Shown: piece by piece, positions 1 to 64,000 of the stretch
How the letters are laid out: every line of letters starts with the position of its first letter
Position numbering within the stretch: the first letter of the stretch is position 1
DNA from: Chiloscyllium plagiosum
Lineage: Eukaryota
Direction of reading: 5' to 3'
Length of the DNA: 64,000 nucleotides
Assembly: GCF_004010195.1 (NCBI RefSeq)
Contig: NC_057719.1
Coordinates: forward strand, 35,216,137-35,280,136
Notes under the pieces: model-generated
What the model saw: only the letters and a program-made list of their open reading frames with translations
Database searches by the model: none
Told to the model about the DNA's origin: nothing
Translations under genes and position numbers: made by a program

Positions 1-470
1 GAGGTTGAGAGCCAAGTTCGGTAACCATGAGGACAGTCTCAACCAGAATCTTGACTTCATGTCGCCCTACAGCTGATCCCACCACACGATACACTCTCTC
101 ATAGACACTCACACACACACAGTCTGTCACACAAAAACACTCACACAGTCTCTGTCTCGCTCTCACACACTCTCTCGAGCGCGCAAGCTCACTCAACACA
201 TAAATCTACGGGGTAAATTCGCATTTGCAGATTTGTATTTACAGGTACATACTATTTTGTTCAAAAAGCACACTATTTGTAGAAAGTCAGTCAATGTGAC
301 ATTTTATAAGTTCCTGCTTTAGAAATAAAACCAGTCTGACTCCCAAGTCGTGAAACTGACTCCAAACCAGACCTCACGCCTAAAATGCATTGTCTCACCT
401 GAAATGTCACCTCTTTTATATTGATAAAGAGTTAAGTTATCTTGGGGCAGTGATTTGAAAGGAATTCTGG
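1..470 (+). mobile_element. Penelope-like element 3' relic (ORF C-terminus plus CA/CT-rich 3' region)
   Basis: Degenerate 'AKFGxHEDxLNxxLxFMSxY' type terminus at 1-76 followed by CA/CT-rich simple sequence. Confidence 0.45.
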
Positions 471-4790: not shown

Positions 4791-5345
4791 TAAATTGTGA
4801 GAAAAGCAGTATAGAACCTCAAAAAGATATATTGGTAGAGTGTGCTTGTAGATGGTAGATAAAGTTCAGTGCAGAGACCTGTAGAACTGAGGTGATAAAC
4901 CTTTGGTATGGGGACACAGCGGGACAGTGGAAAGTAAAGGGTACTACTCTAAAGGGTGCGCAAAAGGTGAGTGCATAAGTCATTAAAGGTGGCAGAATAA
5001 GTAGGCTTCATTATAGGAGTATAGTGTAAGAGAGGGGAGGATATAGTGTAACACTAGTTAGACCTCAGCTGAGTAGTACATACAATTTTGGATGCCACCC
5101 TATAGAAAGGACGTGAATGCGTTGGAGGAAGTGCAGCAGAGATTTGTAAAAGTGGTTTCAGGGATGAGACATTTCAATTATAAGGAAAGGCTAGGGAAGT
5201 TGCTTCCTTTAGACAGAAGACAATTAAGAAGAGATTTGATAGGAGTTTTCAAAATCATGAAGGTTCTGGGCAGAGTAGATAGGGAGAAACTGTTGTAAAC
5301 AGATTGAGAACTAGAGGATACAGTTTTGAAGTGTTTTGAAAAAGA
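4791..5345 (+). mobile_element. CR1-type LINE 3' fragment
   Basis: PYRKDVNALEEVQQRF...RRDLIGVFKIMK, CR1 ORF2 C-terminus. Confidence 0.75.
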
Positions 5346-5351
5346 TGGTGA

Positions 5352-6113
5352 CTAGTTTTGAGAAGATTTGTAGTCCAGGTTGAGGTTCTGGATGTAGGTT
5401 TGCTTGCTGAGCTGGAAGGTTCATTTTCAGACGTTTTGTCACCACACTAGGTAACATCATCAGTGAGCCTCCAGATAAAGCACTGGTGGCCTGGCCCGCT
5501 TTCTATTTATGTCTTTAGGTTTCCTTGGGTTGATGATGTCATTCCCTGTGGCGACGTCATTTCCTGTTCTTTTCTCGGGGGTGGTAAATTGGGTCCAAGT
5601 CAATGTGGTTGTTGATAGAGTTCGAGTTGGAATGCCATGCTTTTGGGAATTCTCTGTAGTGTTTGTTACAGTCTACTACATTGGACAAACAGGCAGAAAA
5701 CTAGCCACCAGGATACATGAACATCAACTAGCCACAAAAAGACATGATCCACTCTCACTCATATCTTTACATACAGATGAGGAAGGACACCACCTCGACT
5801 GGGACAACACATCCATCCTAGGACAAGCCAAACAGAGACACGCATGAGAATTCCCAGAAGCATGGCATTCCAACTGGAACTCTATCAATAAACTCATTGA
5901 CTTGGATCCCATTTACCACCCCCTAAGAAAAAGAAAAGGAAATGATGTCACCACAGAGAATTACATCACCAACCCAAGGGAACCTAAACACATAAATAGA
6001 AAGTGGGCTACACCACCAGTGCTTCATCCGGAAGCTCACTGATGATGTTACCTAGTGTGGTGGTGAAACATCTAAAAACGAACCTTCCAGCTCAGCAAGC
6101 AAACCTACATCCA
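5352..6113. mobile_element. Penelope-like element (family B) as a fold-back insertion
   Basis: Inverted arms about 5352-5655 and 5845-6113; + arm encodes YYIGQTGRKLATRIHEHQ (GIY-YIG); hammerhead motif in each arm. Confidence 0.85.
6036..6075 (+). ncRNA. Minimal hammerhead ribozyme motif, family B (decayed)
   Basis: CTGATGA-T-GTTACC-TAGTGT-GGTGGT-GAAACATC; mirror copy at 5427-5467 reads CTGATGA-T-GTTACC..GGTGAC-AAAACGTC-TGA. Confidence 0.6.
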
Positions 6114-14685: not shown

Positions 14686-17599
14686 GGTACTAGACCTGTT
14701 CAAAGTCTGTCCCATGTAGCATGGAGGCAGTGCCACACCTCAGGATGGGAGGGACTGGGTCACCACAACAGCTGTATGATTGTCACTCCTAATGAAACTG
14801 TCATGAACAGACCAATCTGTGACATAGATTGGTGAGGACAAGGTAGGATAAGTATTTTTCTGTCTTAATGGTTGCCTCACCACCTGGCACAGGCACAGTC
14901 TTGCTATGCTGTCCGTTACATGGTGATTTATCAATCCTAGCTGTGTTGCCTGGGGAATGTACTCAGGCTCTTGACTGAGAAATTGAGAAGTTCAAATTGA
15001 ATTAGCATGCATGAACCTTTGAGATTAAGGTGGAGTAGAGAGAAGTTTACTCTGTATGTGTAGCATATGCAAACTAAAATTGCTTGTCACAAACATGAGA
15101 TGTCACTTTCACAAGCACAAGAATCGGCATTGTATCTTTGCAAAAATTGAACTCTATGGCTTGCAGAATACAAAGAGAAAACATTAACTAATTTGGATTA
15201 AAATTGAATTAACTATGATGCTGTACTGTAAATGCATTGATATATTATATGTTGAGACTTTAAATCCTTGATAATGTGACATACACATTATCTAAACTGG
15301 TAGTTGGGGAATAGTGAATGGACTAGGTCTGGATGTTTGCTAAAAAGTACATTGGAATTTGACAGTGCAAGAATTCCAAAATAGCTTTGGAACTCCAGGA
15401 TGCATGTTGGGGATGGTATAATGGTCCAGTCCAAATATATCGTTGGCATCAGAAAGAGTCCCACAGAATCCTATCATATGATTTTCCAGTCTCCTCACAG
15501 CAGATAATAGTTTTTCCCAACTTCACAATGACAGATGTCCCTAATGCAGGTGTTATCTTTCCAACATAACTTTGTCTTCTCCAAATGGAAAGTGATGGGC
15601 TGAACATTAGAGATTCAAGATGGATTAATCTCAGATTTTTCATCAGGTTGTTCAACTATGCAGACTCCTTTGGCTTTTTTTGACACCATGTGACATCATA
15701 TTTATAAATGTTGCTATATAATTTCCTGTTTCTTTAACTTCGGAGTATTTTGTGGATAGAATTACATGTATCATCCCTTTTTCTGTAACTTAAGTTTCTT
15801 TTTTGTCTGTGCCAGCTATGTGGAGGTATGAGCATGTATAACTGTGCTGGGCAGCAATTACATACATAATAATGCCAATTATGTGTCTCAAAGTAAAATT
15901 ATTAGCTGTTAATCAGTTTGATTTACCAAAAGGAAAGATTTGCATAAATATATTCTTTCATTCTATTAGGAATGGCTACAGGTTGTTCAGTGTCCTGGAC
16001 ACCACAGACTGCTGGGTCTTCCAGCTGTTATTGAATGTTGCCGTGCCAACTTGATATTAATTATTTCTGACATACAAAACTATAGGTTTGTGTTCTGGGT
16101 ATTAGACTTCTAAAGTTGCTGACCACAAAATAGCAGGGGTTAGTCTAACTTATGCAGGGAAGCTTTTCATATGGAATATACCTAATGCTTAGTGCTCACT
16201 TGTTTGGAATTTCTAGTGCTGCTGGAGCCATGTAAAAGGAAGGTTACTTAAAAGGTAAGTGGCCAAGTGGAGGACGAAGAAATTCTGGCTCCTAAAATTG
16301 AAGACAGCAGAGAGCTGGTAATTCATTATAATGTGTAAAGAAAATGTAACTGCAGAAACAACAAAAACAATCCATTGCTACATAAATTTAATCTCCCTTT
16401 TTGATGGAAGGTGGAGAATAGATTTTACTGAATGAGAAGTGCAGTATGCTTGCAAGGTGGTGGATACCATGGTAAAGAGGCCTAATTGTTTCTCATTTAC
16501 TGAAATACTTTTACAGCTTTGTCTGGGCTGTGTTAGCTTGACAGGTATGGAGGAATGGAGTTGAGGACATTCAAGCTGAAGGAGTTGAAGAATTCTGCAG
16601 AATATTCAGTCCACTGAACACTGCACAAAAACACATTTTTGATGAGCTCCTTTTCATTCTTAACTCTCAGCTGGGAAGGTTCTTTTGGACTTGGGCTATA
16701 GATTATTATCTCAATAGTATTGAAGAAACTGTGTTTGTTGGTGTCTACAAGTCGCTGGATGTCCTGCAGTCTTTTTACCCACTATTTGTTCTTTTATTTT
16801 GTGGGGTTTTTTTTGCTATAGAATTACTTTCTGACACCTGTAAGACTGCTGCTTTTCTCTTGAGCCATGGAAAAATTTCCAGTCAAGGAAAACTTTGTAT
16901 TTGTACTCAGTTAGGTATCTCTTGATAATTTTGTTGAGTCCTGATGTTTTTTGCTAGTCAGGATCAAAGACCTCATCACAGATGCTTGTTATGGTGGACT
17001 TCAGGTTTGAGCAGAAAATATATACACTAGCTGTAGGAGCTGGAGAGGTTGGTAATGAGGCACTGACACAAAAGGGCCTCCTTGCTGGTACCTTAGTGGC
17101 CTAAGTCGTTAATATTTTTGCGGCATTGCTTCTATTACCTCTGCTGCTTAGAGGCCAAATAGATTGAGATGGTAAATTGGATAAGATGGTGATTGATCCA
17201 GTGTAAGTCAATACCGGTCATGGCACACATGGTGTAAACCTGTCTGCAGTCCCCTTGTCTCACTGTCAGAATAGGAAGTTACTTATGACACTGTCATGGT
17301 TCTAGACATTTTGTCAAGTTGAAGATTTCTGTGAAGTTCATTTTCTTGATTCCTTCCCTTCATGTTGCAGTTTTCCAGAGATTGTCTTCCTTCTCAGGAG
17401 GAAGAAATCTCCAAGCAGAATCAGTTTGCTGGGACAAGGATTAGGGATTTCTTGGGGTTAGTGCTTCCTTGTTCTTGTCATAAAGTCATAGAGGTCTAGA
17501 AGGCATAGAAAAAGACTCTTCAGCTTATTAAGTCTATGCCAGTCAAAACAGCCACCTATTTTAATCCCATTTTTCAGCACTTGGTCTATATCCTTCTAT

Positions 17600-17948
17600 G
17601 TTGAAACTTTATTGCTGGAACAGCACAGCAGGTCAGGCAGCATCCAGGGAACAGGAGATTCGACGTTTCGGGCACAGGCCCTTCTTCAGGAATGAGCAGA
17701 GAGTGTTCAGCAGGAGAAGATAAAAGGTAGGGAGGAGGGACTTGGAGGAGGGGAGTTGGCCCCTCCTCCAAGTCCCTCCTCCCTACCTTTTATCTTCTCC
17801 TGCTGAACACTCTCTGCTCATTCCTGAAGAAGGGCCTGTGCCCGAAACGTCGAATCTCCTGTTCCCTGGATGCTGCCTGACCTGCTGTGCTGTTCCAGCA
17901 ATAAAGTTTCAACTTTGATCTCCAGCATCTGCAGACCTCACTTTCTCC
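17600..17948. mobile_element. Young family A fold-back element: perfect 154-bp inverted arms, 6-nt spacer, TSD
   Basis: 17600-17753 is the exact reverse complement of 17760-17913; TSD (c)tatatccttctatg at 17586-17600 and 17948-17962. Confidence 0.95.
17820..17855 (+). ncRNA. Minimal type I hammerhead ribozyme motif, family A (intact); mirror copy on - strand at 17658-17693
   Basis: Stem I ATTC/GAAT, core CTGAAGA, extra A, stem II GGGC-CTGT-GCCC, GAAA, palindromic ACGT, predicted cleavage GTC^ after 17851. Confidence 0.75.
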
Positions 17949-57499: not shown

Positions 57500-59465
57500 T
57501 ACAATGCTTTCTCTCATGTAAAAATAAGTTTAATAATGCTAAAATATGTAAGGAAAGCAGGAAAGAACTTAAACAAGGAATTAGGGTGAAAATAAGTCAT
57601 GAAAAATAATTAGCATATGGATGTAGGTTTGCTTGCTGAGCTGGAAGGTTCGTTTTCAATGAAAATGAAAATGAACCTTCCAGCTCAGCGAGCAAACCTA
57701 CATCCTTGACCTGAGCTACAAATCTTCTCAAAACACTCTAATATATATTATATATGTACATTTATGAAGCAATAGGGTAGACAGGGAAAGGATGATCTCA
57801 GGGAAGATGGGGTTGGTTAGTGCGTATGGACCAGAGATGTTCACTGAACTGTTCCATGAGTTTTTGGAGTTTCTAAGCCAAGTTGCTATTAAAATGGAAG
57901 AGGTGTTGTGCGTCTTAAAAAGTATTAAGGTAGGTAAGTCCCCGGGTCATGATGATATCTATCCCAGAATGTTGAGGAAGGCAAGAGAACCAATTGCTGG
58001 GGCATTGACAGACATTTTTGTATCCTCTTTGGCCACAGGTGAGGTCCCAGAAGAATCAATGTTGTCCCCTTGTTTAAGAAGGGTAACAGGGATGATCCTG
58101 GAAATTACAGGCCTGTGAAACTAATGTCGGTTATAGGGAAATTATTGGAAAAAATTCTCAGGGACAAGATCTATACACATTTAAAAGCAAATAGACTTTT
58201 AGCGACAGACAGCATGGTTTTGTGCGGGGAAGGTCATACCTCACTAACTTGATCGAGTTTTTTGAGGAGGTGACAAAGATAATTGAGGGAAAAGTGGTTG
58301 CTGTTCTCTACATGGACTTCAGTAAAGCTTTTGAAAAGATCCTTCATGACAGACTTCAAGATGAAGTCACCTGGTTTTAGTGGTGAGCTGGCAGGATGTA
58401 CACAGAACTGGCTTAGTCATAGGAGACAAAGAGTAGTGGTAGAAGGATGCTTTTTGGAATGGGGGGTTGTGACCTAGTGGTATTCCACAAGCATCAATGC
58501 TGGGACCTCTGCTGTTAGTGATCTACATAACTGATTTGGAGGAAAATGCAGCTGGTCTAAGTTTGCAGACGACATAAAGATTGGTGGAGTTTGCGGATAG
58601 TGAGGAGGATTCCCGAGGGTAGGAGTGGATATAGGTCAGTTGGAGGCATGGACGGAAAAATGGCAGATGGAGTTTAATCTGGACAAACGTGAGGTCCTGC
58701 ATTTGGAAGGTCACGTACAGGTGGAAATTATACACTGGCAGAATCCATGTGTGTATTGATATGCAGAGGGATCTCGGGGTGCAGGTCCACAAATCACTGA
58801 TGGTGGCAGCACAGGTAGTTAAGATAGTAAAAAAGGCTTATGGAAAGCTTGCCTTCATTGGAAGGGGCATAGAGTTTAAGGATAGACAAGTTATGCTGGA
58901 ACTTTTGCAACTTTATTTAGGCCACACTTGGAATAATGCATACAGTTCTGGTCACCACACTACCAGAAGATATGGATGCTTTGGAGAGGGTACAGAAAAG
59001 GTTTACCAGGATGTTGCCTGGTATGTGGGATTTTAGCTATTAAGAAAGGTTGGATATACTGGATTTGTTATCACTGGAACATAGGAGGTTGTGGATAGAA
59101 CTTTGTAAGATTGTGAAAAGCATGGATAGAGTAGAAAGTATGAGGCTTTTTCCCAGGGTGGAGTGGCCAATTACTAGGGATCACAGGTTCAAGGTGTGAG
59201 GGATGAAGTTTAAAAGAGATGTGCAAGGCAAGTGTTTCACATGAAGGGTGGTGAGTGTATAAATTGCATTGCCAAAGGAGGTGATGGAAGCAGACAGAAT
59301 AGCAGCATTCAAGAAACACCTGGATGAATACAAGAATAGGAAGGGAATAAAGGGACATGGATTCTATAAGTGAAGACAGTTTTAGTATGGAGGGGTAAAA
59401 TGTGTCAGCGCAGGCTTGGAGCGTTGAAGTGCCTGTTTCTCTGCTGGATTGTTCTTTGTTCTTAA
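57500..59465 (+). mobile_element. CR1-type LINE ORF2 fragment
   Basis: KSPGHDDIYPRML, FKKGNRDDPGNYRPV and QRDLGVQVH motifs; 3' UTR. Confidence 0.82.
57619..57738. mobile_element. Family B mini fold-back lacking the hammerhead core
   Basis: Arms 57619-57658 and 57666-57705, both starting at TGAAAA, followed by the family B tail. Confidence 0.85.
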
Positions 59466-62659: not shown

Positions 62660-64000
62660 TAAGGGGAAAGGAAAGGGCAGGACTTATCCAAAGTGTATGG
62701 ATCCAGAAGATATAGCTGAGGCTTTAAATGAATACTTTGCATTACTATTGAGAAATATAATATGGGTATGGAAATCAGGGAAGAAAACTGTGATATTCTT
62801 AAAATACAATTGAGAAAGAAGAGTTTTTGTGGTTTATGCAGGTTTAAAATTGAACAGATCTCCAAGTCCCAATGAGTTAGGCTGCAGCAGGCAAGGTGAG
62901 ATTACAGGCGTCCTGACATTTATTTTCAAATCTTCTCTGGCCACATGGAGATGCCAGGGACTGGAGGACTGTTGATGTACCATTTTTCAAGAAGGATGAT
63001 AGGGATAAACGTGGGAATGATAGGCCCATGAGTTTAACATCAGTGGTAAGGAAACTTTTGGAAAAACCTCTGAGGGACCAAATTAATCTCTACTTGGAGA
63101 GGCAAGGATTAATCAGGGATAGTCAGTATGTCTTTGTCAGAGGGTGATCACATCTGACAGATTTGATTTGAGTTTTTTAAGAAGGTTATTAGTTGGAAGA
63201 GTGTAGTGTTGTTGATGTACTCTACATAGAATTCAATAACAACTTTTTAAAAAATTCATTCACAAAATTTTTTCCTTATCCTTAATTGTCCAGAAAACAG
63301 TTAGGAATCAACCAGATTGCTGTGGGTCATGTGTAGGCTATACCAGGTAAGGATGGCAGATTCCCAAAAGGATATTAGTGAATTAGATAGGTTTTCCTCC
63401 AGCAATTCGCAATGGCTTCATTAAACCTTTAACTCCAGAGTTTTATTGAATTCAAATTTTACCATAAACAATGGCAGGATTTGAACCTGGATCTCTGGAT
63501 TAATAATCAAGTGATAACAATTTGCCATCACCTCCCCTCCCTTCTGACACACATTGCATGGGAGATTCTTTAAGAAGGTAAGTCCCATGGGATCCAGGGA
63601 AATTTGGAAAATTGGATTTAGAGCTGAAAAATGTGTTGCTGGAAAAGCACAGCAGGTCAGGCAGCATCCAAGGAGCAGGAGAATCGACATTTCGGGCGAT
63701 TCTCCTGCTCCTTGGATGCTGCCTGACCTGCTGTGCTTTTCCAGCAACACATTTTTCAGCTCTGATCTCCAGCATCTGCAGTCCTCACTTTCTCAAAATT
63801 GGATTTATAATGGACTTGGTAGGAGGAGGCAGAGGCTAACTGTTAAAGATTGATTTTGTGACTGGAAGTCTGTGTCCACCTGCATGCTGTAGGAATTGGC
63901 ACTGTGTCCTTTGCTGTTTGTAGTGTAAATTATTTATCTAAACACAAATTGAGCAGGTTTGATTTGTAAGTTCATAGATAACATGAAAAGTGGTGGTGTG
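62660..64000 (+). mobile_element. CR1-type LINE ORF2 fragments with nested insertions
   Basis: Degenerate LNEYFA, PFFKK..RP.SLTSVV and SQY.FV motifs. Confidence 0.6.
63620..63794. mobile_element. Family A mini fold-back, 67-bp arms, 13-bp TSD
   Basis: 63620-63686 is the reverse complement of 63697-63763; TSD aaaattggattta at 63608-63620 and 63795-63807. Confidence 0.92.

Follow-up and report, generated by a model that had tools for sequence, protein, structure and literature searches.

Both arms of a head-to-head Penelope-like stub in Chiloscyllium plagiosum open at a predicted hammerhead cleavage site

The element considered here lies at 57619..57738 of the 64,000-nucleotide stretch of Chiloscyllium plagiosum DNA that we analysed (the window; NC_057719.1 35216137-35280136), and its relatives were sought in the 3.56 Gb genome. 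Positions within it are numbered from the base that follows the GUC^ of the predicted hammerhead ribozyme (GTC in DNA), which is +1. An inverted arm on the minus strand (57619..57658) runs, by comparison with a long copy of repeat family B, from +1 at 57658 to +40 at 57619. It is followed by a strandless 7-nt junction spacer, ATGAAAA (57659..57665), made up of an A and a repeat of +1..+6, by a plus-strand sense arm covering +1..+40 (57666..57705), whose first base is the first after the predicted hammerhead cut, and by a plus-strand Penelope tail of about +41..+81 (57706..57740), in which a small replacement at 57706-57708 puts TTG in place of the first 9 consensus bases. The alignment bears out an earlier note on this DNA, which had the left arm stopping at 57658 and the right arm starting at 57666; the note had also recognized the extra TGAAAA of the spacer, but had omitted the A that precedes it. 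Against the long copy (5340-5700, minus strand), the same reference base, 272, opens both arms and GTC ends at 271, so that each arm does begin on the first base after GTC^, as had been claimed, and the hammerhead core is absent from both. The reading of the long copy as AAAACGTC^TGAAAATGAACC also stands, although its end coordinate, given as 5419, was one base short; the correct interval is 5437-5418.

The end of the inverted arm at 57619 is family B's fixed inner end, CATCC, and most family B fold-backs have their left end at about +39..+50. The arms differ by two mismatches, both at sites of CpG decay, and fold as a 40-bp hairpin (-76.7 kcal/mol, z -16). No clear target-site duplication was found for the element at 57619..57738 (score 4). 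Its spacer, unique among 46 elements in which both arms open at +1, looks like one added base followed by a re-copied TGAAAA. Its layout and its match to family B identify the mini element as a Penelope/Poseidon-like retroelement stub with head-to-head arms. It is placed between fragments of dispersed repeats of the D7-D11 and D17-D19 type, window families that we take to resemble the tRNA-derived SINE and CR1-type LINE ends of sharks. Two other identities were considered and rejected. As a microRNA precursor, the element draws only generic hairpin matches in Rfam (39-41 bits against gathering thresholds of 60-95). A non-LTR retrozyme, in the definition given in bioRxiv 10.64898/2026.07.22.740005, has tandem units with a complete hammerhead in each, and the mini element is a single head-to-head unit with no core.

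From its layout, its hammerhead and a weak GIY-YIG match, the parent of family B appears to be an EN+ Penelope-like element of the Penelope/Poseidon type. Passages of two papers describe the insertion unit of such elements as an inverted 5'-truncated pLTR, a 30-40 bp tail and a target-site duplication (PMC3846280, PMC8557442). Family B has the inverted 5' copy and a tail on one end only, and it shares with that unit the head-to-head arm, the one-sided tail, a target-site duplication of 8-15 bp and a palindromic junction. It differs in that both arms of the mini element stop at the hammerhead cut, without the core, and the passages in question do not link junctions to the cut. The 3' part of a GIY-YIG endonuclease coding region, interrupted by one stop codon, can be translated from 5650..5892 on the plus strand, and the motif YIGQTG..R..EH is read upstream of the pLTR in translated long family B copies. 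Pfam PF01541 matched a longer copy, L103, at E 0.0023 and 18.6 bits, below the 22.6 cut-off, and the Pfam GIY-YIG model gave no match on the short window piece. An ATG at -28 lies at stem II of the hammerhead, such that the pLTR overlaps the start of the ORF, and the frame opened by this ATG reads through the tail and continues past +81.

The consensus of 30 position-ordered family B copies contains a minimal type I hammerhead with the core boxes CUGANGA, GAAA and NUH and an extra base before 10.1. In the long copy this core occupies 5430..5463 on the minus strand (C3 at 5463, C17 at 5430, +1 at 5429), and its G12 has been lost through CpG decay. Across 109 gap-free arms, N7 is U or A about equally often, the remaining non-CpG core positions are 91-100% conserved, and each pair of the 6-bp stem II is kept in 95-107 arms. 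At -37:+3 in stem I, U-A is found in 87/109 arms and C-G in 13/109, a covariation that makes this a compensated pair. The helix III seed is the palindromic ACGU, and stem I beside the core is only 3 bp long. No hammerhead family appeared among the 40 Rfam matches at E<=1 in the window, and the minimum-energy monomer fold from ViennaRNA contained no hammerhead core.

Breakpoints around the cut were mapped genome-wide with two search designs. The first matched +10..+19 on both arms and left the gap between them open. It found 66 places; the first 50 of these, less one non-family place, supplied 98 fold-back arms, of which 53 open at +1. The gap of 18 that corresponds to an exact fold at the cut accounts for 19 of the first 50 of the 66 places and the next bin for 4; 17 of these 19 are exact by script, one more is exact by eye, and the last is an unrelated join in the core. 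When the 17 exact TCA|TGA junctions are set aside, 21/64 arms are at +1 and the next bin holds 7. Gaps of 35-65 gave 44 places, which are scattered. In 14/98 rows, -9..-1 or -12..-1 has repeatedly been deleted between TGA(AA) repeats; such losses take out the 3' half of the hammerhead core and mimic +1 starts, and the rows were classed apart.

The second design combined non-consensus sequence at -15..-12 with the same anchor, which imposes one filter on breakpoints from -11 to +1. Among the first 100 of its 133 places, 49 open at +1 and 51 are distributed over the 11 positions from -11 to -1, or 4.6 per upstream position, with -1 and -2 not enriched (5 and 2 of 100). The +1 class comprises 29 exact folds, 6 other folds, 12 non-folded copies and 2 deletions, the 29 exact folds being over-weighted because they always pass the filter and other junctions pass about 1 time in 3. 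Non-folded copies alone number 12 at +1 against 1.18 per upstream position (binomial p 2e-7 to 5e-6), although in one of the 12 (L270) the sequence joined at +1 is not host DNA but comes from further downstream in the element itself. In a broader, thinner breakpoint sample, only 2 non-folded copies among 101 rows started at +1 and there was no significant peak; of 30 unselected arms, 0 were at +1. By a rough weighting, +1 starts make up about 1-2% of arms, with 6468 anchored arms in the genome. A query-based genome search was biased to fold-backs and served for junction and lineage data only. Several non-folded +1 copies (L063, L073, L074, L075, L081, L244, L277 and L278) follow 3-9 nt of their own start in inverted form, and these short inverted starts (TCA to GTTTTCA) resemble a very short second arm or a hairpin opening. 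The check for evenness that the earlier note had proposed thus returned a sharp peak at GTC^TGAAAA. The note's caution that a single example might be a chance truncation is lifted, because the +1 peak recurs genome-wide, with 53/98 fold-back arms and dozens of sister stubs. Its proposal that self-cleavage made the 5' end of the copied RNA gains support from the occurrence of the peak in both fold-backs and non-folded insertions.

The 46 elements with both arms at +1, pooled from several searches, allow the history of the stubs to be followed. The junction is a blunt TCA|TGA without spacer in 32/46 and carries a spacer in 14/46; 2 of these 14 are cases of a mutated +1 base, and the others present 12 distinct spacers beside intact +1 ends. 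Target-site duplications are present in 41/46 sister elements, as against 1.4 in shuffled pairs. The marker at +33 agrees between the arms of most elements: of 43 scorable, 7 are T/T, 31 are C/C and 5 are discordant (Fisher p 7e-5), and in long copies (105 long arms) this marker is linked to four upstream sites. CpG decay between the arms is unshared (16 observed vs 16.0 expected), and the +33 agreement must therefore have been in the template. Gene conversion between the arms was rejected on the unshared CpG decay and the linkage of +33 to upstream sites. Shared non-CpG variants other than +33 numbered 4 vs 1.9, which is not significant (P 0.13). The +3 G lineage is represented on each of the two arms of L039. 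On these markers at least two lineages gave rise to the +1/+1 stubs, more than a single amplified master can account for. Among non-folded +1 copies, 8/25 carry a target-site duplication by eye, and one, L307, comes from a distinct tail subfamily. Some elements have a more complicated local history. L017 and L237, a pair in this pool, are one mini on two contigs, with flanks 90% identical, that was duplicated with its host sequence; L224 (G000:C15:24567049-24568086) contains two +1/+1 minis about 420 bp apart, in the same orientation and with different target-site duplications, which could be the product of local re-copying. In several asymmetric fold-backs the TTCA|TGA centre is intact; these may have begun as exact minis and later lost sequence on one side.

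Two loci bear on whether a free RNA end existed at +1. A U6 search with one exact short pattern gave one match, at L305:1370-1550 (G000:C16:2825965 region), where the 3' part of U6 is joined at +1 or +2 in both arms, a T run making the two joints ambiguous; the U6 parts score E 4e-8 and 3e-6 in Rfam, below gathering because they are partial. The joining of U6 to retroelements has been attributed to RtcB ligation, which requires a 5'-OH (PMC6789731). Since that ligation needs a 5'-OH and a template jump needs a run-off end, the L305 RNA would have ended at the cut, and the presence of the same U6 chimera on both arms suggests either that one RNA was copied twice or that one cDNA was recopied. 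The chimeras of U6 with L1 described in the same paper are alike in joining the U6 3' end to a retroelement 5' end, and unlike in that the L305 partner is a Penelope fragment at the ribozyme site and the chimera occupies both arms. At L270:275-585 (G000:C20:42511998-42512230), about 185 bp from the downstream ORF of the element itself (+62..about +240) lies between two +1 ends; this locus carries a target-site duplication, and a circular RNA or a template jump might have produced its layout. A similar join at L374 ends at the same CTAGCCA word.

Family B also has a second preferred end. Gaps of 105-135 gave 226 places, and 11 of the first 50 have a gap of 120 with both arms at -51. This peak at -51/-52 is larger than that at +1. 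Position -52 is a genomic G, and -51/-52 is probably the transcription start of family B, upstream of the ribozyme. Loci L290-L304 are symmetric fold-backs of the form GAAG|CTTC at -51/-52, some with one extra base. The corresponding search in family A gave no excess: none of the first 50 of 3193 places had the exact length, and the gap length of the cut occurs at 82 places, where gap lengths average 103 places each. By eye, about 23 of the first 50 among these 82 are symmetric at the cut, but TCGA is a natural palindrome there and confounds the comparison. The window itself holds two family A fold-backs. At 63620-63794 the right arm opens at, or one base before, the predicted cut and the left arm extends into the family A core by 11 bases, and at 17595-17918 lies a young palindrome with 159-nt arms that are 99% complementary, a 6-nt spacer and the hammerhead on both arms. 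At the RNA level, a poly-A single-cell run, a library type blind to 5'-OH ends, contained 566 family B reads, whose starts and ends did not pile up anywhere, and a second such run contained no family B reads.

Could the peak count copies rather than events, one or a few palindromic master minis having arisen once and then been multiplied by the Penelope protein? Copying a palindromic RNA from each of the two nicks would give the same layout, and such amplification would suit the exact junction common to 32/46 elements, the TTCA|TGA centre kept in several asymmetric ones and the neighbouring minis of L224. We nonetheless judge it improbable. At least three lineages can be told apart (+33 C, +33 T and +3 G), a shared change specific to minis is absent, and the 12 spacers are all distinct. 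A palindromic master, moreover, cannot yield non-folded +1 copies with target-site duplications, L307 with its own tail subfamily included, nor does it account for the U6 case or for L270, and the founders of any master would themselves open at the cut. About as improbable is an RNA end at +1 that is real and owes nothing to the ribozyme, whether a second start, a splice or host-nuclease site, or a stall of reverse transcriptase at the folded core. The larger run-off peak at -51/-52 does show that family B has at least one defined end other than the cut, and metazoan minimal hammerheads are described as weak in vitro (PMC4209133). Against this, the end falls on the exact GUC^ bond, with -1 and -2 unenriched. 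A cap would place a G next to +1, which 0/12 of the spacers beside intact +1 bases do; stem I would presumably stall reverse transcriptase downstream of +1; and the joining of U6 by RtcB calls for a 5'-OH (PMC6789731).

Explanations at the level of DNA fare worse. Longer palindromes might, once inserted, have lost their centre, or a +1 start might be mimicked by deletion of core sequence between repeated TGAAA words, and deletions between short repeats evidently do occur in the core, as the 14/98 rows attest. Those rows still carry upstream element sequence and were classed apart, however, the TCA|TGA junction has no microhomology to the consensus, a microhomology fold at ACGT was seen once in 50 (L236), and the non-folded and U6 cases would be left unexplained by repair, so that we consider this origin very unlikely. 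Chance truncation or an assembly artefact is harder still to credit: it could appeal to the Logan contigs, none of which spans the mini junction, and is opposed by the statistics of the peak, the target-site duplications and arms that have diverged by independent CpG decay.

We therefore favor, with good confidence, the reading that the arms of the mini element both open at the predicted hammerhead cut because they were copied from ribozyme-cut RNA. In a small fraction of RNPs the minimal hammerhead, probably acting as a dimer with assistance from the protein of the element, would cleave GUC^U and leave a 3' product that retains two reverse-transcription start regions, at about +40 and +75..81. 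The endonuclease would nick both target strands, and each nick would prime a cDNA, most likely with the same RNA molecule as template for both; that both arms tend to end together and share lineage markers argues for one RNA copied from both nicks. Both cDNAs would run off at +1, and their ends would be joined bluntly (TCA|TGA) by an end-to-end template jump or by end joining, or else through a short filler, as in the element at 57619..57738. A single completed cDNA would leave a simple, non-folded stub from +1. The +1 stubs would be a dead-end side path, with most copies made from uncut RNA. A broader proposal seems to us evenly balanced between right and wrong: Penelope RNPs would copy one RNA twice, once from each nick, and fuse the cDNA ends, and the junctions would map the 5' ends of germ-line RNA, with the main start at -51/-52 and the ribozyme end at +1. 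The hammerhead, lying inside the ORF start, would on this proposal cut a few percent of templates in vivo and serve as a self-limiting switch, not as an obligatory processing step.

Several pieces of this scheme have precedents. A different route, self-priming on an antisense template, has been proposed for Penelope-like elements (PMC3846280). The protein of Poseidon PAc from Anolis extends both strands from two reverse-transcription start sites bounding the tail, and the Anolis hammerhead cuts when protein is added; the reaction in vitro did not need cleavage, and none of the RNA-seq reads had either end at the cut (PMC11167929). Poseidon of Anolis carolinensis resembles family B in an ORF that starts at stem II, a cut 26-28 nt downstream and two reverse-transcription start sites (PMC11167929), whereas in family B of C. 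plagiosum a minority of insertions form a breakpoint peak at the cut. For the minimal hammerheads of metazoan Penelope-like elements, in vivo evidence was stated to be absent, and cleavage followed by circularisation was proposed (PMC4209133). The family B motif agrees with them in its core boxes, the extra base between 9 and 10.1, the G10.1-C11.1 pair and the palindromic ACGU in place of helix III (PMC4209133), but its 3' product appears to have been copied directly. A closer parallel in method is R2, whose genomic 5' junctions track the cleavage site of an HDV-like ribozyme; as here, the position of the cut was deduced from junctions in the genome, which show non-templated additions and putative template jumps (PMC3774820). 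In R2 the cut sets the normal 5' end, whereas in family B it lies inside the ORF start and would give rise to abortive stubs.

The layout of an inverted arm plus tail, the ribozyme and the reading of a cut from junctions were thus known already. Our literature searches returned no report of Penelope genomic breakpoints at a hammerhead cut, on which supplementary figures of the Anolis study may bear, and the concentration of Penelope breakpoints at the bond cut by the hammerhead is likely to be new here. Falling on the exact scissile bond, the +1 peak would constitute heritable germ-line evidence of cleavage that is readable from any assembly, and the junctions yield a rate, about 1-2% of arms. 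The finding would also constrain the unsolved second half of Penelope integration.
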